From contig CM119371.1 in assembly GCA_051294905.1 (NCBI GenBank), forward strand, positions 9,116,001-9,180,000: a stretch of DNA of 64,000 nt, read 5' to 3'. Below, one piece after another: positions 33,729 to 61,860 of this stretch (its first letter is position 1; every line of letters starts with the position of its first letter). This DNA comes from Botryllus schlosseri. Lineage: Eukaryota. The notes beneath the pieces were generated by a model. The model was not told the DNA's origin. It ran no database searches and was given only the letters and a program-made list of their open reading frames with translations. A program made the position numbers and the translations under genes.

Positions 33729-33910
33729 ATGAATTTCGGCCGGATTTTGGGAGCCATCTTATCTATTTCTACATTTGTTATATTTCTTTCTGGGACATCA
33801 GGCCAATCTGGAAGGCCTTACGGCAACAGCGGTGAAGTGAATATCTTATTCGTAAGAGCGACTTCGGTCGAAGTCGGGTTCAACTATGTCCAAGGAGCAA
33901 CCATGTATTA
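33729..33910 (+). CDS. Gene B exon 1: signal peptide and FN3 start
   Basis: MNFGRILGAILSISTFVIFLSGTSGQSGRPYGNSGEVNILFVRATSVEVGFNYVQGATMY; donor TA|gtaagt. Confidence 0.85.
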
Positions 33911-36900
33911 GTAAGTGAATCTGGTGGTAACAGTAGACCCAGATCGATATCAAATATATGAGCCGATACCGATATCCACGCTATATATACAGATATTTGG
34001 CCAATATTCACTAATAATTTTTTGGCTAACTCTCATCAGAAACGAACGTGTGTATTGCTGTAAAGTGTTACTTATTTCATTGAAATGAAAGTCTATTGCA
34101 TGTGCGAATATCAAGCTTTGAATGCCTTTCCATTGCACTTGAAAGCAACTTTAAGTGAATCCACGTTCCATTTAACTTCCATATACTTTCAATTTGCCGT
34201 GCCAAGAACGTGACCGCAAATTCCTCGGGGCGCACGTTGCAGCGGAATCCCGCTGACAAGTAATTAACGCATGTTAGCGTGATAATCGAGGTTTACATCG
34301 TGTGACCTGAGAGGTCGAGTTCACGAGGTTTTTAACCGCCTTTGTTTATGGCCTACGCATGATACGATGGAAACACTCATAACGAACAGAAACAGGATCA
34401 TGGTATAGGACGTTGTGCACTCAAATCACCAAAGTCTGACATGAAGACGTGTACAAACTACTGGATTTTCAAATGTGCAACTAGAACTAGAATTAAAACT
34501 ACTCATTTTTCCGAATCCGCAACTAGAACTATTAGTACTGACTTGAAAAAAAATCGCAACTTGAACTAGAGCTAGAACTACTCACTTTTAAAAATCTGCA
34601 ACTACAACTAAAATAAGAGATCTTCATTTTTTGAATCTGCAACTAGAACTAGACACTTTCAGAACTATCAACTAATACTAGATCTAGAGCTACTCGCTTT
34701 TACTACTCCGCAACTAATAACTAAAATTTCTCGAAAAAACAGAAGTTAGTTTACCCTGTCAACTAACTATATTCGCAGTCGGTACAGCTTTGCTGAATTG
34801 CGGCTCCTATTTATCAGTGTAAACGCAAGAGAATGGGTGGACGGCAAGAAAGTTGGTAACCAAGCGATCGGAATTTGGTTGCACGGCCGGAAAAGATCGA
34901 CGACATTGGGCAATCTCAACCCAGGAGTGCGTTTGTAAACCTGTAACTTTTTTTCGTATGCAGACTAAAATATCCTATATAAATGGGCTATTAGAGGTAC
35001 AGAACAATTTACTGGAGTATACAATTGAATAATATGTTGGTATTGAAAGATACCCGAATATTTTCGGCTGACATCGACAGGGGTAATCGTCAGAAACTAG
35101 TAGAGAATCGGAAAAATACATTGTGTAGATTATTTAATTGTATATCTTACTTATAAGTGTTTGAATCCATGTTTTCGCATACTGGTGTGAAACGGAGCGT
35201 CACTTTCATATTTTTAAGAGAGAATACCTCATACGAATACAAGCTTACGCGAAAGATCGTCCGATAGGGTCACGCCCGCAAAAAGTGGTCAGGACTTCTC
35301 AACAATGCTACACGTGCAACGCGATGTCTGACAACGAACGTAAGTCATATGGTTGGAACGACGCTGATTGATTCTACGCCTGTGGTGTCTGAGTCTTCAT
35401 TTCGCCGTGGCGGAATCGAAGCAGCCTATGTCCATTTTTCAAATTTTGAGACCTATTTTTCAAATTTAATTGTTTGTAAACTTTTCATTTGTTTTTTCCT
35501 TTTCAAAATTGATCATTACCATTGATGATATGTCCGAAAGCGTATGAAAATTATACATAAAGTTAATTTTATCAAAATGTGTAAAATTGACAAGGATTAA
35601 AGCTACTTTGATTCCGCAGGGACAACATAATTTAGTTTAGTGGTTCCTAACGTGGGAGATATCGTATCCCAGTAGATGGTTTTTAAAAACAAGGGGACGT
35701 TTGGGGGCGATATGGGCGAAAATGTTTGGAACCACTATTTTAGTTAAAGTCGAAACCGTTTAATTCCGACACTTTGATTGCGCTCACTTCTAGCCGAACC
35801 AAGTACTGGTTATTGTGTCATAATCTAATGAAACGAATTGCGAGCCTGTGTCCGAATTCAGATAGGAATTGCCCGGAATAAAAGGAGATTTTTTATGAAC
35901 AAGCATTTCGGCCGAATGAAGTGGCTATGCGGGTTATCAGGCATCTGAATTAAGCGGACTCGTCCGGCTGTTGCTCTAGTTCACGGGAAACTGTCCTAGT
36001 AATATTGCATAAATGATAGCCAGCGTAGTAATGAGCAAAGTGGTCAGTATTGCCGTCTTAGGTACTCATGTAGCGGTAGAAGTAACGCCGTCCATGACTA
36101 TTCATGTGTAAGTAGACATAGCGAGTTACAAGTATGTCTAAATGTAAGTATTCTTGGCCTAGTCTACATCATAACCAATTGAGGCAGTAGTGCGAGTAGA
36201 CAAAATCTACATGAAGTATGCTCCGTTACTGACCATCTGTGGTAATAAGAAGCCTTGTGTGGAGAGATAGCGGTTTGTTGCTTCGTCAACTGGGAAATTA
36301 CCAACAAAGAAATTCGTTATAAAATAAATAGGCGGAAAATTCCCTCCGCGGTAATATTAATATTGGTAATAGCACATTTACAGAGGCACTGATCGCCCTT
36401 TTCAGGCTTTGTGCACTATGAGACGAATTTTCGTTATGTTTAGATGTTTTTGCCTTTCGTAATCCTGAGGACGTCTTTCACTTTTTCTCTCACTCAGACT
36501 TCAGTCTCTCTCGCTCCCAAGCGTCCCCATCGTGGTGATTGTTTTTTTTGTGGTATTCATGGTGTTTGTCAACTTATAGTATGGCCCATTTCGTGGCTTT
36601 TCTTTTTATAAGACACCGTTCTCACAGATAAGATGGCGAGGAAAAGCGTGGATAAACCTCTAACACTTAGGTACGAATTCTGTAGACGACCTCGGTCGGA
36701 CTCGAACCCACAATCCATTGGTGTTGCAGCTGTGGATTATACCACTACGATATCTCGCCACCGTGGTCTTTGCTGCCGCCTTGTATCACGGCATACCTTC
36801 AGTCTGGGTTTGGAGTGGTATGAAATTATCTTTTGGCGGATTGCCTTAAACAAGTTCAACTTTTGTGTCATTTTTCATTTCTATCCATCGTAACTTTCAT

Positions 36901-39900
36901 AGGAAATATTTGATGGGTCCGGAATAATGACTCAATATACAATAGGGGAGCTCCACCAGAGACGAATCTGTTGAGTTGTTTGTCAGAGTGCAAAGGGCCG
37001 GACAACGAGTTCGAATGTTCCTACGACAAGGACGCGTGTCTCAACGAGGTGCGGTACTCGAAGGGAGTGCCGAAAATCACGAAACGCTGCTCGCAATGGC
37101 GGCCCGAACTTGGAGGACAGATCCAGAACGGAAGTGACGTAACAGTTGCATGTTCCGGACGGGGGAAGTAAGTGGAAATCTCTTGCTTTACTGATCCGTT
37201 CCAAGCTGACTTGGACAGCAATCGAAAATTCCACTGTTAAATTAGACTACTGAGAGCGAAATACCTGTAATTTAATTTGTGAAATGTTTCTATTTCAATT
37301 CAAGCTTAATTCTTGGTTATCACGAATATGCCACAGAAGAACTGAATCGTTCGAAACGACCTAGGTGTACAAAAATTTGCCATTCTAATGCTTACGAGGA
37401 CGACCTAGGATTTGATATGAACTGAACATTAATTTTGTTGTATCTCTTTAACTTTGTAATTGAATTGAATTTTCATTCCAGCAATAATTAAAATTCCTAT
37501 TTAATTTGGAAAAAATGTGTAGCCATAATTCTCATTTTATTATAATCAAAACAAATGTTTAGCCATCATCCTAATTTTAGTCTAAATCGGTAAAAACCAT
37601 GTGGACATAACTCTTTCTAACTCTCTCTAATTTACTTCGAAAAAAAATCGGAAAATATATTTCTAATTGTAATCCAATCTGAAAAACAATGTAGCTATTG
37701 ATCTAAACAACCGTTTCATTCAGAATCACAGACGCGGCGTGCAGATGCATGTGCAGAAGCAACCTATGCAACGAAGTCGAAGTGCCCTGTTTGAACGGTA
37801 AGGGATTAGTCGTTTTTCCATACAAAAAACTATCTATATCTATCTAGTAAAGTGAGAGTCCATTTCTTCGCAGAATGCTTCAAGGAACTGCCGTCCCCAG
37901 AGAAGAGTTACATCAGATGTACCAATGGAGAAAAGGTGGGCTCGATGTGCTGGTGGTACTGTATGCCGGGTTACAAAATCAAGGGCACGTCAAGATCAGT
38001 ATGCAGAAGAGATCGAACGTGGAGTGTCCTGAATCCGCCCGAATGTGTCGGTGATGGTGAGTATCATTGCTTTCTCACAATGTCGCTGTGGAGAGTAGAT
38101 TTAATAAAACTTGCTAATCAATCGCCGAACATGATTGCAAACATAGTTGACTTGGTTCTGTGAAATTATTTATTGGTATTTTGTCCGAAAGTGGGTATAC
38201 CTACTAAATAATCAAGAAATGTCGGCAAACTTAATTGAATAATATGTTCCATTAAAATTGAAGTATAAAATTGTATACTAAAATTTTGTGCCTCCCAGAG
38301 TCAAGTCACAAGTCAAGTCACAAGTCAAGTTGATTTTTCGGAGTACGAGGCATAATTACGTTATTTCATTTTCATAACTGTCTGAAAGTAGCCTTTTATT
38401 TTCAATGGAGGGACCAATACAGAGGTAAATAAACATGCAAGAAGGCGTCGTGTCGCTAAGGCATACGAAGAACTTCGAAACTACCTATAAGTAACTGTAT
38501 AGCCTCAGTCCCAGCCAAAATATAGAGGATAGAATACGAAACCTCAGAAAGTTGAAACGAATCGATCTGATGCAATGCAGTAGCCACCTACACATCCGTG
38601 AAATACAATTTAAGCCTGCACCGATGGTCGACAAATAATATAAACTTATGATCTATAATAAAATTAGACTTAAATCATACAAGATGTTTGGTTGAATTGG
38701 GTACCAACCACAGTGAGCAGTATATAGAATAGAGATAGATGCTTTGCCATTAGATTATTTTATTACTAGTTTACGACAACGTAAGCTGTTAGCTCCGATC
38801 ACTTCGTTTGCGGTCAATTTATTTGTGATAGAACAATTGCGTGTCAGTCATACGCACAATCATTGAGTGAATGCTCACTGTCACGGGTCAAACCAACGTA
38901 TCGCGCACAATCCGAATATGCAAGATCAGTCATTTCTATGAACACCGTAACTTGATGACTTGAAATTGACTCGTAAATCCTGCACGAGTCAATCAACATT
39001 TCTGAAACGCTGAGTCAAGACAAGTCAAGTTATTTTTGCAAAGTGACTCGAGTCAAGTCAAATCATACGAAAAAAGTTACTCGAGTCTGACTCGCGTCAA
39101 GTTATGACTCGAGTCATTCCAACACTGCCTCACATCGCATTGTGCATTTTTTGTCTTGAACTGATAAAAAATGATAGTGCCTCTGATTGAGCGTCATTAA
39201 TATACGATTATCGACGACAATCTTGCTGTTTTTCAGACCACTTTCATCCCCCTTTTGAATCCAGATGCCCGTTTCTGGTACCTGACGAAAACGGTTTGAT
39301 CTCCTGCACCAAAGGAAACCGACCTGGTTCCGTCTGTACTTTCCGATGTTTGTCGTGAGTGATGTCATCACTAGGGCTGGGCACAATGATCAGAGTACTC
39401 ACATATGAATCAAGCATCAATTCTGATGATTCGAGACGATTGTTGAGAGTTGTTGTTTTTTCGAGTATTGATGTCATACGTTTCGTGCCACGAAGAGAAA
39501 ATTATATAAACGATGATTATAGTTTCGACACCACTATATTTTCAACTGTGTGTGGCTGCAAACCGCGATTGTTCGTATCGCAGCGTACGAAACATGTAGT
39601 ATAAAGCCACGTACGTTAGTGAAAATTACCTATCTTTAAAGTCGTGATCAACAAACTGCTCGGTCACAAAGCGACTGAAATAGGTAGGGTCGAATAAAAT
39701 ACCAAATATCAGAGTTGTATTGACTCGCGTCGTGAATTTTCGGTGACTCGACTTCACTCAAATCATTTTTTCAAATGCGTAAATCGAATCGACTAGACTC
39801 GAGAGTCAATCTCTGTAATGACTCGACTGGTACGTGGGTCATTGTGCATGACTCGAACCAAGTCACATGACTCGAGACTTGGACGGCCAAGACAAACATT

Positions 39901-42900
39901 TCGTTGCAACTTAGAAGAACAGTAAAGTCACCACATGTTTGGTATTTCGTCTATCATTCCTGATGCTTGGGAAATGGGGTCATATAGTGTTGGGACCGAG
40001 TAAAATTACGATATTAATAATGTGAGCCATTCTATATCACTCGAGCCGAGTTGAAAAAGTGAGTAGAACCGGATTGAAATGAAAACTGAACAGTGAACAT
40101 AATGACTTGGGCTCGGACTCAAGTCAAAACGCTGTGACTCGGACTCGATCCCCTACTAGATTACTTGGACTCAGACTCGACTCTGTGGTGAATGTAAAAT
40201 GACTCAACTCGAGTCGAATCAAAACTATAACAGAGTGGTTGACTTGTGACTCGAAACCTTGTAACTTGGTTACAACCCTGCGGATATACCAAATAAAATA
40301 CCAAATATTCTTCAATGTGATATAGATCTGGCGATATACAGTTTGTGGTCGCGTAAAATGTACATATTTGAACTTTCCATATCAATCGCAATGGTGTGAC
40401 GCCATAATATGAAATATTGGTCTAATTGACTCCAAGTCTATCACTCGATTCAGATTCGAATCACTCGCGTACTCGGTTTTGCCCAGCTCAATCACGAGGA
40501 ATTACGATTATGAATTATCATTTCGATGTTTAGAAACAGCAGACTTCACGGCAGTACTGTGAGGAAGTGCGACGGCGTCACCAGCAAATGGTCCGGAATT
40601 CCCGCTACGTGCGAAGGTAGGCTATGCGTTCAGCTGAGCAGAATTTTTGTGCAGATGAGAAAGAGAGAGAGAGAGAGAGGGGGTATTTATTTACATACAG
40701 CCGCAATACAACATTAGCAGACGGCAACATGATGACGTTGAAAAATACGCAAGTCCGGTATTCGGTATGGGATGGGAAATGCTACCGCGGTCTTAGGGGT
40801 CACCTAATCTGATCCCACCTGGATCAAACAGGTACACTGTCTCTATACCTACAGGATCTGGCTGTAACTAATGTTAGTTGAGAATAAAAGAAACATTTAG
40901 GTGGAGACCAAAAGTTTTACCTCAAATCAGACGCTGAACGCCCAAAACACGGTCACATAAATAAATATGAAGTACTTAGATCAGGGGTGGGCAAACATTT
41001 GAGCTCGCGGGCCGCATTCAACATCTGAATCCATTCGCGGGCCGCACTATATAAAATTGGGATTATAAACCCAAACGCAATATGGGTATTTGATGATATA
41101 GTGAGGACATGGAGATGATATATATGCTTATTTAAAACAATCCAAACATTGCTTTGATGATATCGTACAGAAACAGTGGCGAGATTTCATAGGCTGGTCG
41201 ACCTCAATAACCAATTAGTCAAAACTATAGAGATGAAAGTCAGTTGTCCACATTCTTAGAACAGGATTGAAATTTAAGTCTCTGCGGCGATCTGTTCATA
41301 GATTTACTAATTCCACTTTTGGATCAGTTCCCGGACGCACAATGCAGACAGCATCATAACCATGTTAGCTTCAAACACACTTCTACTATGTGTGGATAAA
41401 ATATAAATACCCAATTTCTACGCATACAGAAAACGAATCCAACTAACACACGCGCGAATTGTTTTTTATAAGCACATCACTGAAATAATTAAAACTGTAG
41501 TGGCCAATCCGAAATCACACTAATGATCCGTATTATGTCAATCTCGTTTAGGATTTCTGTGATGTTTAGCAATTGAAACCTCTCAAACTGCGTACATGGG
41601 CCTTGAGATGGGGCTGTCGCGCCAGAAATTAAACATAAAAAAAGATAGGAAGTATTTACCTCAGAATAGCGGTTCTCCAACTCCCCCCCCCTGTATAATG
41701 ATAAAAGAGTCTCCCCCCCTATCGTCATATAATAAAACGCCACCTAATGGATAGTTAGATGGCATGGTAGGTTACGACTGTGGATGAGACATTTTTCAAA
41801 ATGAAATTTAAAATAAATACAGAGCAATAATAATGAATTGTATGTAGATCGCGCGGAGCGCGAAAATTTTTTCCCGTTGAGCTCGGCTTCGCGCCCTCTT
41901 CAGATGCTTTCACGCCCCCAAGGTGAGTGCGCCCCCAGTTTGAGAACCACTGCCTTAGAATTATCATGGTGAATACCAAGAAAAAGTTTAACCAAGTCCC
42001 AGCATTAATTCGATTTTATCGTCCCACGATTTTATCAATACTTTTAATAAGTTTCTTTAGACTCTCGCGGGCCGCACCGAACGGTGTCGAGGGCCGCATG
42101 CGGCCCGCGGGCCGTAGTTTGCCCACCCCTGACTTAGATAAACGGTGTCCAATGTTGATTTCTGGGACTGGTTTAGCGGAGCCTGAAAATTGAAAAATTG
42201 TGCTGACCCATGAGTCCCCGCTCCTGCGCACTGCTTGAAATAAGTCATCAATCATGAAACGCCGTTGCCATGACGTCTGGCTTCGTGTTCGCCGGGAATG
42301 AACTGTACCTCGACGTTTACCCGAATCACGGTTTACTAAAGAAAAAATGTGCCACATGAAAGACTTTCTAAAGATATTAACATGCCATCTGTACGACTGT
42401 TGGATTGTGTACGAAAAAGACGCACGGTCGCCGGTATTCACGACTAGCTGATTCGACGAGATGTTTCCTTCTCACCTGATACTGGTGTTGACCACTACAT
42501 TTAGCAAGCATTACTTTGTCATAAGTCAACCCCCGCCTTAACACTTTCAAAAATATATTTTCACAACGGGCCTGACATCGCATATCGCAATGCATGTAAT
42601 TCAATCAAATTCAAGAACAATTAGAAATCAACAGTCATAAAAGTTAGGTTTACCATATTTTAGAAATCTGAAAAGAGGACACTTTTTCAGAAATTTGCAG
42701 CTTGCAAAACCGGAGTAGAATTCTCAAAAACCGGTGAATTTTTCCCACTTTGTGATCGGTTGACTAAAAAAAAGGTAAAAGGTTATCTTTCCCGCTCAGA
42801 GCTCAAAATGCCGTTTTTCTCTCGACATTGCCAGGTGGATGACTAAAAAAAAAGGTCATATTTTCGTTCAGAGCTAAAATCACCGTTTTTCACTCCGAAA

Positions 42901-45900
42901 TACCCGCCGGAGCTTCTCTTTTGTGCTAATTTGCGGCATATCACTCGCAATTTGCTCTAAATCTGACCTAAATTTTCAAAAAAGAGGACAAAATCTCAAA
43001 AAAGAGGACAAAAGGGCGTCCTCCGAGGACACTTTCAAAAAAGTCAAAAAAGAGGACAAATCCTCTTAAAAGAGGGCGTATGGTAAGCCTGTAGAAGTCA
43101 TATAATCAATTGACAAACTATAGAGAATTAGATTCTATTCCTATGGCTTAAATACAAGAACTATTTTATCCTATCATACTGCACCTCAAATTGGTGCAAT
43201 TCAGCTTTCCTCAAACTCAATTCTTCCTTGTGCCACATTCAGCGGTATTATACCAGCAAGGGTAGGTGCCAAGGTGGTTTAAAAATGCGAGGTTTATCGC
43301 CCGCAGATTTGATAAAAACACACGTTTGGTCTCCGGTATGTCTAGAATAACGTGCTAAGCAAGCATCCAACAGCCGCTGAGCCGGACTTTTGGTCTCCAC
43401 ACTTAGTGACAGAAGCAATTGCAAATGACAGTGATAGTAATGATAGTGAAGTAATGTCAGGACCAGTTGAGGCAACAGCGTTGCTATATGACGATAAGAA
43501 GTAGTCAAATGCGCCTTTTGAATCTGCCACAAGAATTCATCATACAACTAACGCATAAGTTGTGGTAATGCATTCCAAATGATAGGCCCTAGGCAAGGGT
43601 TGTAATGACTCGAGTCACGATTTTTGGTGGTTCAACTTGACTGCAGACATTATATAAAATATGGAATATGACTCGACTCGGCATTAGGCAATTTGTGTGT
43701 TGACTCGACTTGTAATCTAGTCATTCCACATGACTCGACCAAGCAATTTGACTCGAGACATGACCAGCCAAGACATGTATTTTGTTGTGACTTGAAAGAA
43801 TAGTGAGCTACTACATTATTGGTATTTCATGTGTCAGTACTGGTGCTTGCGAAATAGGGACATAAACTGTGTAAAGGGAGGAATATCAGTATGAATGCGC
43901 GGCCTTCAATATCACCCACGCAGAGTTGAACACGACAATGAACAGCTGCACACAACGACTTTGACTCGGACTCTATTAAAAAGACAATGACTCGGACTCA
44001 AACCTTCGAGAACTGACTGGGACTCGGACTTCACTCGGTGGTGAAGTGAAAATAAATCAGCATGAGTCAACTCAAAACGGCAAGGCAATATGCCCAGTCC
44101 ATTCATGTCAACTAATTCCCCCATCATAGAATACTATGATCTTCGCCGAAGCCGTATCAGCTATTGGTGAGGAATGGTAATCTTGGGCAACCAACAACCA
44201 CAATACTTTTAAACTGTCATCAATTTCATCAATCAAAATGCTTCAATAAGCGTTCTTACGAAATCTCAAATCAGGTCGCGGGCCGCAAAATATGACCTCG
44301 CGGGTGGTGTGTTGGTGGGTGACCCCTGTCCTAGGCACACTTGAACAACTAGATGGTTGTCTAATTAGAGCGTAATGCTAATAATCCTATTTTAATTCAT
44401 GGAATGTTTATATATGCACCCATTTGATTTCTAATCAAATTTTTGGTTTGACTGAAAATAGACAGGATAACTGTATAGTGCGAAACAAGCCATATGCCTG
44501 TGTACAAACATTGCTATTCTCGTGCTTGTGAGAGTCAACTCTCATTTGACATGAACTGAACTTGTTTTTCTTGTTGTTGTTTTTCTAATCAGGAATTTGA
44601 TTCCATTTCCAATTTTTGCGAGCTCAGTAATTTTAATCAAAGTCAATTTCGAAACAAGTTGTAGATATCATTCATTCATTGCGGCAATTTTTCCAAAGAA
44701 CAGATCCCGAGTATTGAATAGATCTGATTATTAAGTTGCTATCAGCTGGGGGTAGTAGACATTTCCTTTTTGCGAAGTAGCTTGTATTATGAGAGTTAGC
44801 CGCCGAGGTTTGTTTTCCTTAGACATCATTTGCAGCGTGATAGAAGAGCGGAACGGACTGACTAAAAAGTGCACGGACAATACAACGATCGGATCGGTCT
44901 GCGAGTTCTCTTGCCCAGAAAACAGAAAGCTTCTGGGAAGTCACAGAGTGATATGTCAAGTGACAGGTAGCTGGTCCTCCAGCATTCCAATATGTGGAGG
45001 TGAGACTTCGCGCAGACTTCTGAGCTCTCAAGCTACAGCTGCATATGACCTCAAATTTGAAATGAACTTGACTGATTAGTGCAGTGGTTCCCAACCTTTT
45101 TGACCTTGCGGCACACTTTGAAAATGAAAAAGATTTCGCGGCACACTAGCACAGTGGTTTTGAACTCTTTTGGCTTACGGCAAAAGCAAACTACCAGAAT
45201 GCGTATAGCAGCAACCGCAGTCTTATATAGGTGGTCACTGGTCAGTGGTCACTGACGAAGTAGCCTACTTCTGCCTTTTCGGTGCTCTTAAGTAGGCTTT
45301 TCGCTGCTTCAAAGAAGAAATTAAGTTTTCTTTTATCTCTGCGGACATTTCACAAATATACGTCTACGAATGGTATAATTTAACATGGGGATCGTTTTCA
45401 ATTCTTCTTTTTTTACAATTTTATTGCAGGCAAGAATAAGGACTTTCTCTCAATCCGTGTGAGGTTTTGAATTATCAACCATTACCTCTGTTGCCACATA
45501 ACTTGCTTGCTGAGATCTCGTTCAAACTTCAGGCTGAGGTTAATTTCATAAGACTGGCTTGACAACAAAGTCTGCCCACTACCTCGTTGCCGATGTAATT
45601 AACCGTCGCATGGAAGAGTCCAATCGCGATCGTCACTAACAAATACAGACGCGTATAGAGGTGTCTATACTTGGAAGCCAAACGCGTTTCCATGCAGATC
45701 GTGTAATAGCTTCTGCGAGGATAGCAATACCTCAGTCAAGAGTCGTACTGCATGGCAGCCAGCTGCTGGTCAATTGCAGTTCCAACAAACCGGGATGATA
45801 AACCGCAGGACCGGTGAAATTTGTTAACTGATATAATTTGATCAACATTACTTCTCAATTCTCAAATTTGTCGCCTGCAACATTACGTTGCGCCCTGAGC

Positions 45901-48900
45901 CTACATTTTACCTGCAATGCTGGCACGCTACCTAACAATCGCAATGTGAATGGCTATGTCGGCAATATCAATTTGTAAACGTGAACATCACTTCCAAATG
46001 AGTATACATTTCTCGATGATGGGAATGCCTTCCTAGGTGTTGGAGGTTTATATTGGCTCCTACTCGTCCTCGGATCTGCAAAAGCAATATCTTACAAAAA
46101 GTGGACCGTGCTATAAGTTGGCATCTCAGGAATCAAAATATGTTATATTGGCATGGTATAAAATTATCATCGATAACGAAGACATGGCAAGAATACGACT
46201 ACAAATAAAAACAGAAAAAGGTCATCAACTACGTCACGTCCCTGTTCGGCCTCCGGTTCTGATGGGGTGACAAGTAAAAGGTCACCTTCGGCCACACCTC
46301 AACATCACGGTCCAATAGCCCGAGTCTAGTTATCTATCTATCACCGTCTTAAATGCTACTATATGTGGGCAAACTAGCGTATCACACCCATTGACGATGG
46401 AGGCCCCAGTTTCATTCATGGCAGTGCAGTAGCAAGTTACGAAGCGTCGCAGATTTAAGATATTCTGCGACCCTATACGTTGCTGTGCTCAGAGCGTCTT
46501 TACAATAAAAAGCCAGAATAAAAAACCAATCCATGACCTGATGGGGATGCCTGATTGAGATAACGTTACTATGGCCGTCGCGACACCCTTAAATCTGTTC
46601 ACTGCATCGGATTGTACATCGCGTGTCTTGATATAGTAAATTCAATAGAAAATCCAACAATGACACACTCAAAGTTTGTTTTTTTGTTATACTTCGACCT
46701 AGTTTACCGCATTTGCTCGCGGCACACCTGAGCAGTCCAATTGGCACACTAGTGTGCCGCGGCACACCGGTTGGGAACCACTGGATTAGTGTTACATTTC
46801 TTTCTGATAAGGATTTTACTTCAATATCCATGTGTTTTTTTAATTTTAATTTTACAAAAGCGGAATATATTCTCGTTGTTCAACTTGGGTAGTAAAACGG
46901 TCCTATCTTGTGGGGCTAGGCTTCGATGACGCTGTTATATCGAGCCTCTCGTTTATGTCTCGCTTATCCGTACATCGTATGACACAGAATTGCATTTTTG
47001 TGTATGTTATTGATTTGCACGAATGACACACACAGTAACTTGTCGTTACAGAACCCGACTGCTCTATTTTCCCATCGCTGTTCGATAACGTTGTAATGGA
47101 GTGTTTGCGCATCCCGTATCGCGAGACCGGCAAGATGTGTATCTTCTCTTGCAAAGAAGGCTACGAAATTGTCGGCCCTAGCCGAACGTTTTGTTACAAT
47201 GGAAACAGTTGGACGGATGTATCGCCAACGTGCCGACGTGAGTACTATTTGAGCTCGCAAAACACTGAAGGCACAGATAGGCTACACATCACATGTCAAA
47301 ACTACTTCAGGTAGATAAGAAGGTATGAAAATGACACAGTGAAGTAGTTTGAAAAAGTATATCTGGCTTCTTGGTCGGTAGTTCGTGTATTCAATCCGTT
47401 TTTGTGATATTTATTCAAATATGTAGGCTATACATAAAATATCAATAATTTCATAAATGCAACTCTTTCGGTTTGATTCGTCCCCATCATCGGGTCATCT
47501 CATCGCAGTCGTTGTCGAAGGCGAATTTGTAGTTGAAGTAGTTGAAATGGTTGTAGTTGGTAGTTGAAATGGTTGGGTTTTGTGGGTCGATAAATACAAT
47601 TTATCACGCACTATCGGATAGCTTTCATTATTATGTGGTCCGTCATATACGTTGCGCATGATTTCGTCGGGTGTAGCGTCGATAGCCATTTGCAGGTCTG
47701 TATATAATGTTCCAGATCTTGTATTCTATTTGCTAATCCATTTACGTTAATCAACGTTAGTTTCCATAGATTCGTCATCGATTCTATTAGGAGAATTGTT
47801 ACGTTTGTTCTTCTTACTATTATTCGGCTTTTACGCTTGGCTGCTTGCAGTTCCTCTGGTAGTCATTCTATCGCTGTGTCCACGTTTCACCCTCTCCTCG
47901 CAGCTGTTTGTCTGTTTATGAGGTTTCGTATCCGACGGCTTTTTGATAGCTGGCTTTTGGGCCGTTTGTATTTCTCTTTGTTTGTCAGTATTCTAGTTTT
48001 CCAACACGGCTTGCGCTAGCTCCGTTTCTCCCCGTGTTGTGTCTGCATTTTCGAATGCGGCGTCAGTTGAGGAGTATGTTTTGATAATTGCCTGGCTTGC
48101 CTGCCTTGTTTCATTCCTCTTCATGTCGTCATTACTGGTTGTTTTCGGGTCAACCGTATACCTACCTACTGTTTCATTGTTGGCTATTTCAGGATTTTCA
48201 GGCTCGGTCATATACCCGGGTTTGTCTCGTCGAAGTTTGGACCTGCATTCGTCTACCTACACGATGACCCAGTCGTTTGCTCATCTTGCATTCCAATTTC
48301 GCATTCGGGCATTCCTTTACAATATGTCCAGTCATATTGCAGTTGTTACATCGCTTCTGAAAAGCGTCTTCAGCTGTTCTGATAAGGCTTTAATAAGGCA
48401 TTAATTTTTGTATGGTAGGGCATGTTTTCTTTTCTGAATTCATTCACCCAGATGTTAGTGAAACCATTGTACCAGTTCGTGTTTCTTCTGAAGACTCTGG
48501 TCAGGTTAATAGCCGTCCCAAAACCATATTCACTCAATTGTTCGGCTATAACCTCCTCTTTAGATTCGTATGGTATTCCTTTAACAATGAGGTATGTCGT
48601 TGGACGCCTTCGGAAGTCAACAGTTATAATGAGGAATTTTGCTTCATTGTGGTTTTGTCTCATCTGGTATTACAATCCATCTCTCAAGTTCTTTCCATTG
48701 GTTTCTGTGATCAAATTCATAATCCTTATTCCTTTCCTCAGCTCATATAAGCCTGCAATATATTTATAGTATTTACTTGTGATGCGGTTGCGTTGTAATT
48801 CTTCAATTATTGTAACGACCTGAATGTGTTCATTTTCTTTTATATAGAAGGTATTTGGCCTGGTATGGTTGAACATCGGTGTTTCCTGATTGGTTTTTCT

Positions 48901-51900
48901 CTGTACTGTTGTATTTTCTGCTCTTTCCGTTACTGTTGCATAAGATACCTGTGTCTCATTTCTTTGTGCATCGGTATCGTCAACTTTGTACGTCTCCATG
49001 GCCGTCGCCATTGTTAATCGGGTAGTTCCTGAATTGTTACGTCATATATCCAACTACCCAGTATATCCAATATCAAGTATATCCAGTATATATCGAGTAT
49101 ATCCAGTAATATATCGTCCTTTCCCGTAGTAAACGGGTCAAAAAGCTGGTTATATTGAACCAGGAACCTTCAGATCTTGAGTCTGACGCTCTCCCGACTG
49201 AGCTATCGCGGCGGCACCGAGGACAAAAAACCTACTACGTCTAGCCCTATCCTATAGATTTGGTTGATGTGTCCCATACGTTTGGCAGATCGCCTGGGGT
49301 GGCTACTTTCAAAATCGAGGAATAATTATTGATGTCACAAACAGGTACAATTTTGAAAATACCTTTTCCGGTTACTCTGATGGATCTTTTCTTTGTTATG
49401 CCAATTTCACTCATAAACATTGAGGCGAACCTATTCCAAAACTACTTCTTACTTTCTAAATTTAAAGTGCCAAGAGTACGGTGATATTTATACAAACTGT
49501 CTAGTAACAGGGCAAGTATAGTGTGAATACAAACACACGAGTAGGTAGTGAATGTACTCGAATAATAAAGAAATACCTTGATACTGACCATCTTCGCTGC
49601 TTTAAGACACCAGATGTCAACCGCCAGCGTTTCCCCCGAGGAACGGTTTCATGCGGTGCTCCGAAAGGGACTACTACGGCTCTGTCTGCGCATTTTCCTG
49701 CAAGAGCGGCTACATGCTGCTCGGGTCTAGGAAAAGCACCTGCGGATTATGGGGCTGGTCCGAGGAATCCCCGATTTGCAAAAGTAAGAAAAATCTTTAT
49801 TTATGTTTTGGACTGTGCAAAATCGAGTTCCCGTGCAATTCGGATCTGAAGTATTAGACGTCGAGTCAGGTATTCGAACATCACAAATTATGACGTTATA
49901 ACAGTGTACAAGATGTGGAAAGATCAAATATGTACTTTCATGTGACCACAGAGAATCTAATGTCAGTTTTACATCATAATAATGACACTCCGGTATTTTT
50001 TCGAGCAGACCAATTTCATTGTACTTTGTGATTGTGCCGTAAGTTGGTCACGACCTCACACATATGCTATTGCCAGTAACGCGCGTACCTTGGTACTACA
50101 CTTTGCGCATGCTGCTTCCACAGGGGATAATAGTCCCGAAACCATATTTCTCGTTGAAAAATTTGCTGCTAGTGGCATGTTGCGTGTATTTAAGCATTAG
50201 AAAAAATCAGTCCTCGTTACTCGACTGTAATCGCTATAATTAACACCAGATTTAGATTCCAGTACCAGCATCAATTTTCCCTGAGTGGTACTTGAGAAAA
50301 TTCATTCCATTCTCAGCAATCCGATGTCAGTCCATCCTAAATTTCAACGGTCACTACTCTTGCAACCGGGGGTATAATTTCGGAAGTATGTGTCGTTTTT
50401 CTTGCCTGTATGGGTTTGGGTTTGAGAAAGGAATGAAGACGAGGCTAAAATGTCTGCGCAAGTCACAGGAAGAGCTCGAGGTCGGGCGGGTATACTCGAT
50501 TCTCGGCCGTTGGAGTTCGAGAGTACCGCATTGCGTGGGTGAGTCGCGGGGATTTGCGGGTTTATTATTTTAAAATCGAAATCATGAATGAATTTGTTAT
50601 CATGTCCGCATCCAAGTTCGAATCCGGTAATGCCTGGAGTTTGTTCAAAAGTTGCACCGAAATTGAAGATGATTTGAAAGTTCATATCGGCTACCGATTC
50701 AGATTAATTGCTAAATTCCGTCCTGTCAGCGATCGGTTGTTCGCAACTGGGTGCAGTTCCAGACAACTCCGGGAGAAAATGTACCTCCGTTTCTAACACT
50801 TTTGGCACTATCTGTACGTATCAGTGCGATAGCGGTTACGGAATGATCGGCCCCTCCAGAACTACATGCGTCGCGAGTTTGGATGGCGAATCAAGAGGAG
50901 AGTGGAGCCATCCACAACCGTTCTGCCAGAGTAAGTAATTTGGAGTAAGCGGGGTCAAGTTTTCATCAAAATCTAGAGCGATTTTCTCTGAATGACTTGA
51001 CTGCAGTCTCAATTTTCCAATGACTTGCCTTGAGTCACATGTCCAAATGCCTTAACTTGAATAATATTTATGAACGACTTGACTCGAATGATAATTATGA
51101 ATTGCTCGACTTGAGTCACCGCCTTCAAATGACTTGACTTGACTTGGGTCACACTTTCTGAAAAGCTTGACTCGAATGCCTTAATGACTATGTCCGAGTT
51201 TTCGACCTGAAATTGGATAAGTTGAGTTAAATTTTCTAAATAACTTGAATCGAGTCATCGACCTCAAATGACTTGACTTCCACGAAGTGATTTTCCGCAG
51301 GAGTCACCTGTGGACCTTTACCACTCGTGGACAATGGTGACGTTAAATGCACGGATGGGGACTATGAAGGTACTGCTTGCTCAGTTTCTTGTCGATACGG
51401 ATACAATTTTCGAGGAAGAAATCCAGTTCGATGTTCTATCGAAGGCCTGTGGTCGCGTAGCTTCGGTCGCTGCACAGGTGAAATCATCGACAACTAATTT
51501 ACTTATAGAATGGTTATGCAAAACAAATGACTCCACGGTTAAATAACCGAATCCAGCTAGCAATTTCTGGCATAGATTGGATACAATTACGGCAATGTAA
51601 GAGCTTGTGACCCGATCGCTGAAATTATTGAAAGTTGTATTGAGCGAATGCTGCTCTCACTCTGAATCCGAAATTATAAATATTAATCCTGTGATAACAC
51701 TGCAACCAGGCGTGGACAAATAGATCATTCTAGCTGTCTAATTCTTGGGTCATCACCAGTTCGCCCGTACGGACCACATGAGTCGCTCTTGGTGACAGTA
51801 GCAACCATTCAAATGAGAGGCTTTTCAGGTCGAAGTAGAGAAGTTTTCCTTACAAACAGCAGTAAAACACAGGTCAGTCGACCCTAATGAACATGCTTAC

Positions 51901-54900
51901 GATCGTCTTCGCCCTCTCCCCCTCCCCCTCCCCACTGGCTACGGTAATGTTATGTGATCCGAGCGCGAACTTTATTAAAAGAAGTCTTGAGCAAACATTA
52001 GTCTTGCAATGAATCGGAATATATAAATCATAATTATGCGAAGACACTGCAACCTAATCATTCCAGCTGTCCAATTTTACTGATGAGAGCGAAGTACCTG
52101 TAATCTGATTTGTGGAATATTTCTGTGCTCACATTTTAATTCTGAACAAATTACTAGTTTTCTTGAAAATGTTATTTGAGAACTGTATCGTGCGAAACGA
52201 GCCAAGCTTGCTGTAGAAATACACATTATCATACTGACGAGAATGATCTCAGACTTGATATGAGCTGAACTTGATGTTTGTTATGATTCTTCGTAATACG
52301 GAATTGAATTCAATTTTCAAGTATTTCCAAAGTAAGCAATCCTATTTCTTATCAAATTTGGAAGAAACTGTGTTACGATCATTCTAATCATAATCGAAAT
52401 TGAAAAAGCTTAATATTTTCTAGTTGTCCAATTCTCACTGCAACGAATCCAAGATTCCTCGGGAAAGACGATAATTCACATTGTTTCGAACTCGCTAACA
52501 GTAAATACAATGAGAGACTTGTTGCGGCATTCCGATTGCTCGCCTCAATGCAGATTTCTAGCTTTGTCTGCTTGCAAGAGAAAAGCGGATCGAAAAATTC
52601 TCTGGTCCTAGTCCTATCCTGTTTTTAAAAGCTCTGCTCCGACTCCTAGGCCGGATTCTAGAAATTAGCGTGATCCCGTCCAAAAAAACTCCGATAATAA
52701 TTATCTACTCGTAGGATGGTTGTCCTGACTTAGACCCGACATCCAATGACCAGGAACGCAGAACGCCGAATCCAATACTTCTATAATATTAGCGAGACTT
52801 ACAACTTAACAGCAAGTCGACAAATAAGGAATGACCATACTCACGACAGCGGGTGCAATATAAAGCAGCGTAATAACTACATAAACAATGATTACTAACA
52901 CCACAATGGTATTGAATATTGATTGAGACGATGCAAATAAGAAAAAAACTCGAAGATCAAGACCCACCCTTATCTTAAGTAATAAAACCAACTTGGACTT
53001 AGCATGTGTTTCATTTCCATGGACGTTTCACTTTAACTGTTGATTCGAGAGTGGAAAAGAGTAAGACTATCCTATTCCTAATAAAAGTGCTGATCCGGGT
53101 CCTATCCGGCCCAAAATGAGAAAATCAGTCTCCTGTCCATGACCGGCGCTACTGGTGGCCTGACCGTGCAGTGGCGTGTTGCGCATCTATCTATAGTGAA
53201 TTCAAAGCAAAAACGAAACCCCTATTTTTGTCCGCCAGTTGTGATATGCCTCGGGGTCCCTACGCTGATCAACGGACGCTATATATGTGGCAGGGCCTTC
53301 AGATACAAGTTCAATCACAAGTGTGAGGCGGCATGCAAGTGAGTTTTGCAATTTAACTTCATCTGTTGAATCTGTCAACGTTTTGATTTAAGCACTGGTT
53401 TCAAGTTATCCGCGCCGGGAGAGGCCGTTTGTGATGTGAAAGGGAATTGGTTGACGTCTGAAGATGTTAAATGTCAAGGTATTGTATCGCGGACTTGTCG
53501 GTGTAATCTGTAGGGCTGGGCAAAATCGAGTACTTTACTGATTCGATTCTGAATCACGTATTTTGCTTCGAGTCGATTCGAGTATTCGAGTATAACTCAT
53601 TGTGACGTAATATCAAATGCCAAGGTTCAAATATGTAGCTTTATGCCACCACAAAGAATATAATGCCTGTTATCCATCACATTAATGATACTTTGATATT
53701 ATTTTGACCCTACCGATTTCATTTCACTTTCTGACAATGTTGTGGGAGGATCAGGACTTCGGAAATGTGTTATTTCCAGTAACGTTCGTAGCTTTGTACC
53801 ATGTGTCGTATGCTGCGACACGGCCAATCAAGGTTTCATGGCTTCCACAGTGGAAAATGGTATCAAAACCCTAATTCTCGTCGTTAAAATAACTTTCAGT
53901 GGCGAGGAACGTATAATTTCAGTACTCGAAAAAATCGTGTCTTGCTACTCGACTCGAATCATTGGAATAAATACTCGATTCAGATTCGAGTACTCGAATC
54001 ATTGTGCCCAGCCCTAGTAATCTGTAACGGAAGACGAGGTAACCACATGTAGGCTACTTACTCATCAGAGTTCTTTAGTCCAGATATTATTCAATGCATA
54101 CAGAGTTTATTCAGGCGTTTGCAAATAGCGTTAACAAACGTATGTGAGAATTAGGCCTACATACTCGGACTATTTTAGACAAGATATACCACTCATGCGT
54201 GATCAGTTTTCTATGGTACGGCGCTATACACACGCGTGATATAAACTTTCATGGTGGACAATCTTGGATTGCAGCTGGGGTTGCATTTAAAACAAAAATC
54301 AATTTACAACAAACATGTTTAAGACATGGCCCTTGTTTAGAACATGCTTTTATTGTTGTTGTTTTTTTAGCCATGGCGTCACGAATCTTTTATTGTGATG
54401 TCATAGTGGATCGATATTGACAATTGAAAATATAGGGTAAATATGGATCCTTTGACGAAATAGGCTTACGACCAATGTTCCCTCTAAGCTGTGCACGTGC
54501 GCTAATGCGCAGTACTGACACGGTCTCTGCGCACGGAATATCTAAGTTGCGCACAAAAAATCAGAAGTGCTGACCTTTTTTAGTCGTTACGCACTGTTGT
54601 CCAAGGGTCTGCGCAGTGAGTTGGTGAGCGTGCGCAGTCTCGTCAAAAATTAGAGGGCACATTGCTTACGACCCCTGTCATAAACTATAGATTACTAACC
54701 TACGGATAGATACCAGAGATGAGCGGATTTGAAATTTCTATGTCCTAATCCAATCCAAATCCGAACCTTCAAATCCAAATCCTAGTCCATACCTTTTTCA
54801 TATTTAAGTCCATGACCAATCCTAATCCGATTCCAACTGGAAATTCAGAAGAAAAAAAACTATTTTATGCAATTGATGGATTCGAAAATTTTCTTCACAA

Positions 54901-60900: not shown

Positions 60901-61860
60901 GTTACTCTTAACATTCTATCTGCTACGTTTTCAGATTTCGTGTTACATGATATTTCTCTAATTACAATCAGTATATATTGAAATTTACTTCATTACTCTC
61001 AACATTCTATCGACTACGCTTCCAGATTTTATGTTACGTGATATCCACCAAAAACGTCCAATCTTTGAATTCTTGTCGGTAGGGTCAAGCCCGCCTATGA
61101 CATATCTTACCGAGGAAGATCCTATCGTAAAGCACGAGAATGTCTTGCTTACGAGATTGTTTTGCGACATATATGATACATTCTCTTTAAACTCCGACAA
61201 GGAATCTGGTGGATCCATTTGCGGAAGCCCTAGACTGCGCCCGCAAGGGCGCAGTGTTTTGTGTTTTCACCGTGTTTACACAATTATGGCATAATTATAC
61301 AACTTTTGGAATACAAATTTTGTTAGAGGCCGTGTTTTAAAGGCAACCCGTATTTGGACAGTACGCTCGTCTTGTTCATTCTTTCAATAATAACTCACTC
61401 AAGTACATGGACATGTGTAATTAAATCCAATTAAAATGTAGGAAATATTTTGTCCACGTGACATATCAACAAGTGATGAACTAATAGTAAAATCGAATCT
61501 CTGGGGTACCCAATTCCGGCTCAACCGTGTATACAATGTTCTTTTTCAAATCTCTACTAGTTGTTGAAGATCACCCTTGACGAGTATCTGCCGAAAATAT
61601 CGGAGTTAATTCAATGTGAGTTTAGTATTTAATTGCATACAGAAGTTATTGTTTCATGTAGCTCCATAGCTCTCTACCTTGGATGGTTTGTTTAAACTCG
61701 ATTTTGTGTCTGTCAGATGAGAACGAGTGCGAAGGATTGGACATGAATGGCAAACAAAGAAACGGATTCTGCGAACAGAAATGCGTCAACACAATCGGAT
61801 CCTATTATTGCGATTGCGAGGACGACTACAAACTGGACGAAGACGGACGAACATGCACAA
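33729..61860 (+). CDS. Gene B: signal peptide-FN3-three-finger(LU-like)-9x sushi-cbEGF; 17 exons, at least 840 aa, 3' incomplete
   Basis: join(33729..33910,34818..34926,35219..35339,36987..37167,37724..37797,37874..38056,39237..39354,40534..40616,44823..44999,47052..47237,49607..49783,50317..50538,50730..50930,51301..51477,53239..53338,53393..53478,61717..61860) = 2521 nt; all GT-AG, phases compatible, no stop. Confidence 0.9.
34818..34926 (+). CDS. Gene B exon 2: FN3 middle
   Basis: YVNAREWVDGKKVGNQAIGIWLHGRKRSTTLGNLNPG; same length as gene A exon 2. Confidence 0.88.
35219..35339 (+). CDS. Gene B exon 3: FN3 end and three-finger start
   Basis: REYLIRIQAYAKDRPIGSRPQKVVRTSQQCYTCNAMSDNE|gtaagt. 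Confidence 0.9.
36537..36759 (-). mobile_element. tRNA-derived SINE
   Basis: Minus strand A-box-like TCGTAGTGGTA, B-box GGTTCGAGTCC, A-rich tail; TSD ccatcgtggt/ccaccgtggt; empty site near 4965. Confidence 0.8.
36987..37167 (+). CDS. Gene B exon 4: three-finger core
   Basis: QCKGPDNEFECSYDKDACLNEVRYSKGVPKITKRCSQWRPELGGQIQNGSDVTVACSGRG|gtaagt. Confidence 0.9.
37724..37797 (+). CDS. Gene B exon 5: three-finger end
   Basis: KITDAACRCMCRSNLCNEVEVPCLN|gtaagg. Confidence 0.9.
37874..38056 (+). CDS. Gene B exon 6: sushi 1
   Basis: ECFKELPSPEKSYIRCTNGEKVGSMCWWYCMPGYKIKGTSRSVCRRDRTWSVLNPPECVGD|gtgagt; an alternative in-frame donor lies 6 nt earlier. Confidence 0.93.
39237..39354 (+). CDS. Gene B exon 7: linker and first half of sushi 2
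   Basis: ttttcag|DHFHPPFESRCPFLVPDENGLISCTKGNRPGSVCTFRCLS|gtgagt. Confidence 0.88.
40534..40616 (+). CDS. Gene B exon 8: second half of sushi 2
   Basis: NSRLHGSTVRKCDGVTSKWSGIPATCE|gtaggc. Confidence 0.9.
40982..42131. mobile_element. hAT MITE
   Basis: TIR caggggtgggcaaac/gtttgcccacccctg; perfect TSD acttagat. Confidence 0.9.
42645..43091. mobile_element. MITE with AAAAAGAGGACA subterminal repeats; related inverted copy about 59139..59582
   Basis: Ends taggtttaccata / tatggtaagcctg; body is the reverse complement of 59250..59582. Confidence 0.7.
44823..44999 (+). CDS. Gene B exon 9: sushi 3
   Basis: DIICSVIEERNGLTKKCTDNTTIGSVCEFSCPENRKLLGSHRVICQVTGSWSSSIPICG|gtgaga. Confidence 0.93.
45082..46783. 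mobile_element. Non-autonomous hAT element
   Basis: TIR cagtggttcccaacc/ggttgggaaccactg; perfect TSD gattagtg; empty site near 11775. Confidence 0.9.
47052..47237 (+). CDS. Gene B exon 10: sushi 4
   Basis: EPDCSIFPSLFDNVVMECLRIPYRETGKMCIFSCKEGYEIVGPSRTFCYNGNSWTDVSPTCR|gtgagt. Confidence 0.92.
47490..49153 (-). mobile_element. Decayed LINE (L1/Tx1-like) 5' UTR and ORF1
   Basis: ATG at 49011; RRM-like TYLIVKGIPYESKEEVIAEQLSEYG..NG; zinc knuckle CNNCNMTGHIVKEC near 48310..48350; GGATATACT repeats in the UTR; broken by stops and frameshifts; no ORF2 seen; left boundary approximate. Confidence 0.75.
49154..49212 (-). pseudogene. Truncated tRNA-Phe-like sequence (5' end through T-loop), anticodon reads CAA
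   Basis: GCCGCGATAGCTCAGTCGGGAGAGCGTCAGACTCAAGATCTGAAGGTTCCTGGTTCAAT; the 3' T-stem and acceptor strands are missing. Confidence 0.85.
49607..49783 (+). CDS. Gene B exon 11: sushi 5
   Basis: HTRCQPPAFPPRNGFMRCSERDYYGSVCAFSCKSGYMLLGSRKSTCGLWGWSEESPICK|gtaaga. Confidence 0.92.
50317..50538 (+). CDS. Gene B exon 12: sushi 6 with a long loop insertion
   Basis: TIRCQSILNFNGHYSCNRGYNFGSMCRFSCLYGFGFEKGMKTRLKCLRKSQEELEVGRVYSILGRWSSRVPHCV|gtgagt. Confidence 0.9.
50730..50930 (+). CDS. Gene B exon 13: sushi 7
   Basis: AIGCSQLGAVPDNSGRKCTSVSNTFGTICTYQCDSGYGMIGPSRTTCVASLDGESRGEWSHPQPFCQ|gtaagt. Confidence 0.93.
51301..51477 (+). CDS. Gene B exon 14: sushi 8
   Basis: RVTCGPLPLVDNGDVKCTDGDYEGTACSVSCRYGYNFRGRNPVRCSIEGLWSRSFGRCT|gtgaaa; this frame is missing from the ORF track. 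Confidence 0.92.
53239..53338 (+). CDS. Gene B exon 15: first half of sushi 9
   Basis: VVICLGVPTLINGRYICGRAFRYKFNHKCEAAC|gtgagt; phase 1-2. Confidence 0.88.
53393..53478 (+). CDS. Gene B exon 16: second half of sushi 9
   Basis: After a 54-nt intron: NTGFKLSAPGEAVCDVKGNWLTSEDVKCQ|gtattg. Confidence 0.88.
53511..54016. mobile_element. hAT MITE, TAGGGCTGGGCA family
   Basis: Perfect TIRs; TSD gtaatctg; reverse orientation to 28270..28783. Confidence 0.9.
54473..54664. mobile_element. 192-bp hAT MITE
   Basis: TIR caatgttccctctaa/ttagagggcacattg; perfect TSD cttacgac. Confidence 0.85.
54714..55136. mobile_element. hAT MITE with AATCC subterminal repeats, followed by a second partial copy from 55145
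   Basis: TIR cagagatgagc/gctcatctctg; perfect TSD atagatac. Confidence 0.85.
57694..58668 (+). mobile_element. Intact hAT MITE of the GACTCGAGTCAAGTCA family
   Basis: TIR cagtgttgggat/atcccaacactg; perfect TSD acaggacg; older or related copies near 25410, 29190, 38300, 39715, 43595, 50950. Confidence 0.9.
59595..60002. mobile_element. Palindromic (hairpin) MITE, possibly Kolobok-like
   Basis: About 190-bp near-identical inverted arms with a spacer of about 28 nt; termini GGTAA..TTACC flanked by tgaa/ttaa. Confidence 0.8.
61717..61860 (+). CDS. Gene B exon 17: calcium-binding EGF domain
   Basis: DENEC...FCEQKCVNTIGSYYCDCEDDYKLDEDGRTCT matches the cbEGF consensus (DxNEC, CxNxxGSYxCxC); phase 1-1. 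Confidence 0.92.

Follow-up and report, generated by a model that had tools for sequence, protein, structure and literature searches.

What kind of protein is specified by the series of short coding pieces, separated by long introns, that occupies the second half of a 64,000-nt stretch of the Botryllus schlosseri genome (contig CM119371.1, positions 9,116,001 to 9,180,000)? This stretch, which we call the window, is eukaryotic DNA with about 40% G+C, and the gene in question, on its + strand, is referred to below as gene B. Our analysis indicates that gene B is a genuine animal gene that codes for protein. We judge it probable that its product is a mosaic protein of the secretory pathway, in which a predicted binding head composed of a fibronectin type III (FN3) domain, a Ly6/uPAR-like (LU) domain and a first sushi module (CCP1) would sit on a stalk of further sushi modules, followed by an EGF domain, and that it would serve extracellular adhesion or ligand binding. 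The modules are familiar ones, in an order that is undescribed and apparently restricted to one lineage.

We rebuilt gene B frame by frame from the + strand between 33.7 and 62 kb. The resulting model comprises 17 exons (33729-61860, +), with AG at each of the 16 acceptors and GT at each of the 17 donors (33/33 canonical dinucleotides), many of the donors reading GTAAGT or GTGAGT. When spliced, the exons yield 2509 nt, that is, 836 stop-free codons with compatible phases throughout, and the encoded modules follow one another in the order signal peptide, FN3, LU, nine six-cysteine sushi modules and one calcium-binding EGF. The first-pass annotation of this DNA had proposed 17 phase-compatible exons and at least 840 codons; the number of exons and their compatible phases stood, but the codon count had to be lowered to 836. 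Since the last exon ends in phase 1, the coding sequence must continue beyond exon 17. None of the 90 other long open reading frames (ORFs) on both strands of the window matched a Pfam family, so there is no rival gene overlapping gene B.

Exon 1 (33729..33910, +; donor TTA|GTAAGT, ending in phase 2) carries the ATG, a putative signal peptide (MNFGRILGAILSISTFVIFLSGTSG) and the first FN3 strands. Scanned in segments of 19 residues, the entire model is strongly hydrophobic only at residues 2-24, the position of this predicted signal peptide. The FN3 domain is spread over exons 1-3: its middle lies in exon 2 (34818..34934, +; VNAREWVDGK...LGNLNPGVR) and its last strands in exon 3 (36048..36107, +; IAVLGTHVAVEVTPSMTIH), whose phases, 2 in and 2 out, fix the reading frame. 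With Pfam, no fn3 match was obtained on the unspliced pieces of the window (the exon 2 piece alone gave nothing), and LU matches on such pieces remained below threshold, in agreement with the earlier remark that both modules become visible only after splicing. Exon 3 is the least certain exon of gene B. The 3/4 junction sits in a poorly conserved linker, its support consisting of phase and open frame only. Two other arrangements of this region were tried and rejected: exon 3 read in another frame (YSCSGRSNAVHDYSC) has donor phases (0) that match no exon-4 acceptor, and a conserved internal exon-4 acceptor, CAG|AGTGC, would require phase 1.

Whether these exons belong to one gene could be judged against a predicted, uncharacterised protein of Styela clava, XP_039268327 (P0004 in our searches; 531 aa, named 'P-selectin-like isoform X2'). 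The gene B product aligned with it in one collinear block (residues 37-530, 179/520 identical, i.e., 34%, E = 3e-75), which crosses junctions 1/2 to 10/11, including 1/2, 2/3, 4/5 and 5/6. Examples of stretches that span a junction (gene B versus Styela) are GATMYYVNAREWVDGK versus GASGFLVSAKEWIDGK, and PGVRF-IAVLGT versus PGREYVIQVQGT. Because the Styela protein is collinear and was predicted independently, it links exons 1-5 to the sushi exons. Taken singly, exon 1 shares 40% and exon 2 shares 47% identity with the FN3 part of the Styela protein, and the start of exon 3 aligns with Styela VIQVQGT. Together with the Pfam matches to Sushi and EGF families given below, this alignment upholds the domain order that had been proposed at the outset, the LU part being recognized by sequence only.

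XP_039268327 has a sister isoform X1, XP_039268326 (537 aa), with a short hydrophobic tail, and a second predicted Styela protein (P0005; 'uncharacterized protein LOC120343256 isoform X1', 911 aa) is 39% identical to the gene B product over 318 aa (E = 8e-60). When XP_039268327 itself served as the query, only itself, the 911-aa protein and an unrelated sushi protein were recovered, and the Pfam pre-computation sees only Sushi in these Styela relatives. In a literature search covering titles and the beginnings of abstracts, we found no paper on the Styela proteins or on the module order FN3-LU-CCP. The suggestion that the architecture is undescribed thus holds in the sense that no paper was found, but the module order is already in RefSeq in the form of predicted relatives that share the N-terminal arrangement and were named automatically from their sushi repeats. 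These relatives are themselves uncharacterised.

The identity between gene B and Styela is unevenly distributed, amounting to 39% in the FN3 part, 43% in LU, 59% in CCP1 and 31-35% in CCP2-5, the latter being close to the level observed between unrelated CCPs of the same protein (26-30%). The stalk and the ending vary as well: Styela has forms with five CCPs and with two, the latter followed by a long T-rich stretch (some 500 residues rich in T, P and R), and in the window a tandem paralogue of gene B, copy A, has at most five CCPs and then a stop, while gene B (copy B) has nine CCPs and the EGF. Because FN3, LU and CCP1 are better conserved than CCP2-5, and because stalk and ending differ in every form, we read the protein as a head on a sushi stalk, as the first-pass annotation had done. 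Under this reading, the product would enter the secretory pathway via its N-terminal signal peptide, and the conserved FN3-LU-CCP1 unit would act as a protein-binding head. The sushi array would be a spacer that holds the head off the cell surface or the matrix, with a length that varies by copy and species. The far end of the molecule (the EGF and what lies beyond it, or the mucin-like stretch in Styela) would decide the site of tethering, and further C-terminal parts would be expected beyond the window.

The fold of the FN3 part was assessed on the Styela homologue. We modeled its residues 36-222 with AlphaFold, supplying the window exons of both copies as alignment rows, and obtained a mean predicted local distance difference test score (pLDDT) of 62.9; the first 100 residues, at pLDDT 72-84, formed seven strands. 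A Foldseek search of the PDB with this head model gave 129 matches at E ≤ 1e-3. Among the 40 matches listed, 39 were FN3 domains or scaffolds (e.g., 5dft_B, TMt 0.82, root-mean-square deviation 2.6; 6x39, TMt 0.76, root-mean-square deviation 2.0), the single other one being a glycosidase. VIA-align against 48,161 chains agreed: all 50 matches listed were FN3 or FN3-derived by title (Z 12.4-10.3). The predicted structure of the Styela homologue is therefore clearly a seven-strand beta sandwich of the FN3 type, and from the 39% identity to the Styela part we infer, by homology, the same domain in the gene B product.

The second module of gene B is very probably an LU domain. It is spread over exon 4 (36946..37167, +; donor GAA|GTAAGT), which encodes its first part with six cysteines, and exon 5 (37724..37797, +; ending in phase 1), which encodes its end (CRCMCRSNLCN) and a linker, so that the complete module shows only after splicing. 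The exon 5 motif aligns with CKCMCRSNNCN of Styela, and the module ends in gene B as C-x-C-x-C-x4-C-N, with the usual adjacent CC split by one residue (CMC). Among Pfam profiles, Toxin_TOLIP matched exon 4 at 18.7 bits, short of its cut-off of 21.2 (E = 0.0029), and QVR (u-PAR/Ly-6-like) matched the Styela protein over the full profile (E = 0.052). When exon 4 was searched exhaustively (phmmer/HMMER) against 1.84 billion representative proteins, four proteins matched: an unnamed fragment of 114 aa (P0001; 53% identical, E = 5.3e-17), the sea cucumber protein KAJ8019844 of Holothuria leucospilota (P0003; 837 aa, E = 2e-4), Styela XP_039268327 (E = 7.4e-4) and a repeat protein (P0002), which we discarded as being without meaning for LU. 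The Holothuria protein contains four LU repeats and matches Pfam CD59 (1.2e-12) and Toxin_TOLIP (1.1e-9). In hhalign, a family LU profile built from gene B, copy A, Styela and P0001 aligned with these repeats over 66 columns (probability 88%, E = 2.9e-6), with the cysteines in register.

Gene B has 11 LU cysteines, copy A has 10 and Styela has 12. The first LU finger of P0001 has the same four-cysteine pattern as gene B and, because this pattern is shared, we take it as a trait of the lineage and not as damage. Both the 911-aa Styela protein and the Holothuria protein pair LU modules with extended mucin-like regions that are rich in T, and both have a C-terminus rich in cysteine. The latter looks PAN/apple-like by eye in the Styela protein, where a Pfam scan at E ≤ 0.1 gave no confirmation, and the UniRef name of the Holothuria protein is 'Apple domain-containing'. 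Deuterostomes may have an older arrangement of the LU-mucin-PAN type.

Exons 6-16, all on the + strand, encode the nine sushi modules. CCP1 corresponds to exon 6 (37874..38056; six cysteines, phase 1-1, Pfam Sushi 2.3e-6). CCP2 is divided between exon 7 (39237..39354; ending in phase 2, collinear with Styela CCP2) and exon 8 (40534..40616; also within the collinear Styela alignment). CCP3, CCP4 and CCP5 are each encoded by a single exon, namely exon 9 (44823..44999; Sushi 2.9e-6), exon 10 (47052..47237; 2.6e-8) and exon 11 (49607..49783; 3.6e-6). Exon 12 (50317..50538) encodes CCP6, which has a 14-residue insertion and a Sushi score below the cut-off (0.0021; 18.8 bits versus 20.7), and is followed by exon 13 for CCP7 (50730..50930; 1e-7) and exon 14 for CCP8 (51301..51477; 1.2e-7). 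CCP9 is again divided, its first half lying in exon 15 (53239..53338; ending in phase 2, without a Pfam match on its own) and its second half in exon 16 (53393..53478). In a Pfam scan of 29 stop-to-stop pieces of the window, Sushi (PF00084) matched all seven single-exon CCP pieces (E 2.6e-8 to 2.1e-3), six of them above the cut-off, and none of the four half-sushi ORFs from the two split modules matched alone. All nine modules have six cysteines (54/54 sushi cysteines kept), and the positions C1, C15, G22, C25, C29, C43, W49 and C57 are invariant in their alignment. The sushi exons are of phase 1-1, and in both split modules the intron, in phase 2, interrupts the module at an identical position. 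The CCPs share 26-30% identity with each other. By these matches, the gene B product belongs to the sushi-repeat proteins.

When the CCP1 exon was compared with PDB sequences by phmmer, the matches were CR1, pappalysin-1, CR2 and factor H; a profile of the sushi modules matched 114 CCP sequences at E ≤ 1e-3, with CR1 (7.2e-123), CR2 (1.9e-75) and factor H (1.9e-47) on top, and DAF, MCP and C4BP also present. One might conclude that gene B encodes a complement regulator, a single molecule whose sushi array binds C3b-like fragments in the manner of the regulators of complement activation (RCA) and whose LU domain acts like CD59. Tunicates do have C3, and the Holothuria relative of the LU module matches Pfam CD59. 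However, CR1-type chains are predominant among CCPs of solved structure and contain numerous repeats, so any sushi profile matches them; because these chains are multi-repeat, the scores of CR1, CR2 and factor H are inflated and reflect how many repeats there are and what the PDB contains, rather than function. In addition, the gene B CCPs have six cysteines and RCA modules have four, and the LU domain of gene B is internal, not a GPI (glycosylphosphatidylinositol)-anchored single domain. We consider a complement regulator unlikely. The link to complement amounts to generic CCP similarity only, and the innate-immune, complement or self/non-self role put forward by the first-pass annotation found no support. 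Its description of the repeats as selectin-type was correct as far as the cysteines are concerned (six in 9/9), but this is a likeness in cysteine count only: E-selectin (E = 6.6e-11) was 58th of the 60 profile matches shown, far behind CR1, CR2, factor H and DAF.

Exon 17 (61717..61860, +; its donor leaves phase 1) encodes the calcium-binding EGF, in which DENEC and CVNTIGSYYCDC represent the calcium-binding motifs D-x-D/N-E-C and C-x-N-x4-[FY]-x-C-x-C. The exon matched Pfam FXa_inhibition above the cut-off (8.6e-11; 42.3 bits versus 33.4) and EGF_CA below it (3.5e-5; 24.4 bits versus 27). It was the sole Pfam match among 95 + strand ORFs of at least 33 aa between 53370 and 64000, with no further domain exons in 53479-61716 or 61861-64000. 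Within the 836 residues seen, no hydrophobic segment follows the signal peptide, and no C-type lectin was matched by Pfam on any + strand piece from 33723 onward.

Several observations weigh against reading gene B as one mosaic gene with an FN3-LU-CCP1 head. At the 3' end, the EGF exon is joined across an 8.2-kb intron by phase alone, phase 1-1 module exons fit almost anything, and the EGF is absent from both the Styela proteins and copy A. At the 5' end, exon 3 and exon 4 each begin at a weak acceptor whose pyrimidine tract is poor. All Pfam matches to LU and fn3, on window exons as well as on Styela, lie below the curated cut-offs, including fn3 (PF00041), which on the Styela entries P0004 and P0008 scored 17.8 bits against a cut-off of 25 (E = 0.0038). 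The LU module of gene B has an odd number of cysteines and is without the CYTC start of Styela. The two folds expected by the first-pass annotation fared differently in the Styela head model, the FN3 fold being clear and the LU part reaching only pLDDT 33-68, with FN3 matches filling both structure lists; exon 4 folded alone with AlphaFold gave a pLDDT of only 52.7. In sequence searches of the PDB, the single LU exon had no match at E ≤ 10, a profile of three exon-4 sequences had only chance matches (pectate lyase, Duffy binding protein), and the full-length family profile found only LYPD6 and LYPD6B at E of about 6. The ESM Atlas, too, gave no usable match for the LU part. Finally, the near-neutral divergence of the two tandem copies, described below, fits relaxed constraint in one of them.

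DNA sequencing runs of the same species contain this stretch; for 49600-53600, no RNA run was listed as containing it. Four bulk RNA runs (X8, X10, X12 and X13), chosen by species label, were mapped on 33600-53599, with 6-13% of each run read. The mapped reads were nearly all partial (511/517, 241/241, 1367/1379 and 966/998) and fell on repeats. Depth was zero in the bins of exon 1, of exons 5-6 and of CCP5-7, which at this fraction of the runs is uninformative on expression. None of the 15 joints listed (22 in total) matched an intron of the model. The proposed connection of exons 1-5 with the sushi exons is borne out by the Styela alignment, which crosses the junctions, but has no counterpart among the RNA joints listed. 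RNA depth over these 20 kb peaked by a wide margin at 42650-43100, reaching about 59 in a single strand class of X12, and the reads there run on into poly(A) or poly(T) and other, unrelated sequence; this looks like an expressed dispersed repeat in intron 8, not part of gene B.

Upstream of gene B lies its tandem paralogue, copy A (1412..13349, +), a duplicate of the 5' half of gene B. By blastn, 837-11775 matches 33203-45077 at 71-78% nucleotide identity, introns included, and exons 1, 2 and 4-9 could be recognized by tblastn and frame reading. On the + strand, they comprise exon 1 (1412-1593), exon 2 (2933-3049), the LU exons (5157-5385 and 6030-6103), CCP1 (6184-6360), the two CCP2 halves (about 6950-7068 and 10056-10140) and CCP3 (about 11520-11696), followed by half a CCP with the start of the next (about 12345-12478) and by the last, fifth CCP exon (13170-13346; Pfam Sushi 3.5e-8), which runs into a stop at 13347. 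A poly(A) signal, AATAAA, is found at 13740. No EGF exon was detected in copy A, the Sushi match at 13170-13346 being the only Pfam match among 131 ORFs. A 41-column deletion has taken away the counterpart of gene B's exon-3 donor, so that the frame meets a stop there. The first LU cysteine is lost, and the first half of the fourth CCP was not found. From its sequence, copy A appears degenerate and is probably decaying.

Over 354 aligned codons, the non-synonymous divergence between copy A and gene B (dN) is 0.146 and the synonymous divergence (dS) is 0.185, so that dN/dS is 0.79 overall; it rises to 1.47 in exons 1-2, with only 5.5 synonymous and 25.5 non-synonymous differences. Values of this kind invite the idea of a fast-evolving family of self/non-self or gamete-recognition receptors that grows by tandem duplication. 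The family is also very restricted (four matches in 1.84 billion representatives), and sushi-bearing recognition genes are known in ascidians. The decay of copy A, with its missing exon-3 donor, first LU cysteine and half CCP, nevertheless explains the high dN/dS equally well, the overall value of 0.79 fitting decay of one copy as readily as fast evolution. Moreover, the head, which in a recognition receptor should be the variable part, is the best conserved part between genera. We regard a recognition family of this type as unlikely.

Decay could also have affected gene B itself, which would then be a silent or decaying duplicate, i.e., a pseudogene, with the working copy elsewhere in the genome. 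The odd LU cysteine count and the weak acceptors of exons 3 and 4 are what one might see in such a relic, and word-index searches of a 5.8-billion protein collection, one using the LU ORF and the other the CCP6 exon, found no annotated protein. Against this stand 836 open codons over 17 exons with 33 canonical splice dinucleotides, the retention of all 54 sushi cysteines, and the four-cysteine pattern of the first finger in P0001, which marks a lineage feature and not damage. A pseudogene, too, seems to us improbable.

We therefore return to gene B as an intact mosaic gene. If it is one, it would encode a binding protein restricted to one lineage, probably the tunicates, as the source of its single homologue with the full architecture suggests. 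A bolder version can be imagined, in which a tunicate-restricted receptor family follows the selectin plan of a head above six-cysteine sushi modules but has an FN3 plus a CD59-like three-finger domain in place of a lectin, grows and decays by tandem duplication, evolves fast, and would serve blood-cell adhesion, complement control or allorecognition. To this combination we would assign a low likelihood; a complement or allorecognition role as such is no more than a possibility.

The introns and spacer of the locus hold other elements. Intron 1 contains degenerate tandem-like repeats in gene B (34440-34720) and in copy A (2050-2860, about 500 bases more), which read in translation ...ELELELLTF.NPQLEL... 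A dispersed repeat family, in both orientations, is present at 38299-39072, 57694-58628, 25407-25956 and 29191-30130, that is, within introns of copy A and gene B and in the DNA between the two, and chimeric RNA reads join several of its members. In intron 10, ORFs on the - strand (47700-49050) include a CCHC zinc-knuckle-like motif (CNNCNMTGHIVKECPN), which suggests a decayed retroelement gag, but they had no Pfam match at E ≤ 0.001.

Tunicates are the closest invertebrate relatives of vertebrates. If our interpretation of gene B is right, distant relatives have retained the FN3-LU-CCP1 head and the rest of the molecule, stalk and tail, was free to change, so that nature provides here a clean case of phase 1-1 modules being shuffled as exons. 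It would also mean that the family has been mislabelled 'P-selectin-like' by automatic annotation, because neither FN3 nor LU reaches the Pfam thresholds. Gene B is a specific candidate that can be sought in the numerous single-cell data sets available for this species; as yet it has no bearing on how complement regulation or allorecognition arose.

How does gene B compare with known systems? The nearest are the Styela proteins XP_039268326/XP_039268327 and LOC120343256, which have the same order of signal peptide, FN3, LU and six-cysteine CCPs but differ in having five CCPs with the end just after the last, or two CCPs and the T/P/R-rich stretch, and no EGF. CD59, LYPD6, Quiver and Holothuria KAJ8019844 share with gene B the cysteine-rich module of about 90 residues, which in gene B has the C-x-C-x-C-x4-C-N ending. 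LU proteins, however, are usually small, GPI-anchored or secreted, and have the adjacent CC, whereas the predicted LU module of gene B is internal to a large mosaic, with CMC and 11 cysteines; KAJ8019844 combines its four LU repeats with a mucin stretch and an apple domain. The RCA proteins (CR1, CR2, factor H, DAF, MCP and C4BP) resemble gene B in their tandem CCP arrays but have neither an FN3 nor an LU head, and their CCP modules have four cysteines. The matrix mosaics SNED1 and SVEP1 draw on the same set of FN3, sushi and EGF modules, with phase 1-1 exons, in another order and with NIDO, vWA or pentraxin partners instead of LU.

Selectins offer a further comparison. The six-cysteine CCP is the selectin type, and selectins, like gene B, place a stalk of such modules under an N-terminal head, include an EGF and use the secretory route. 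Their N-terminus is a C-type lectin domain, unlike the FN3 plus LU of gene B, and their EGF lies between the lectin head and the CCP stalk, whereas the only EGF of gene B comes after CCP9. Selectins have a single transmembrane helix with a cytoplasmic tail; the 836 residues of gene B seen here, which end short of a 3' end located beyond the window, contain no transmembrane segment. Because the lectin domain is absent and the EGF is on the other side of the stalk, the gene B product is not a selectin. It would seem instead to be analogous to selectins and other sushi-stalk proteins, presenting on a comparable stalk a head that does not appear homologous to theirs.

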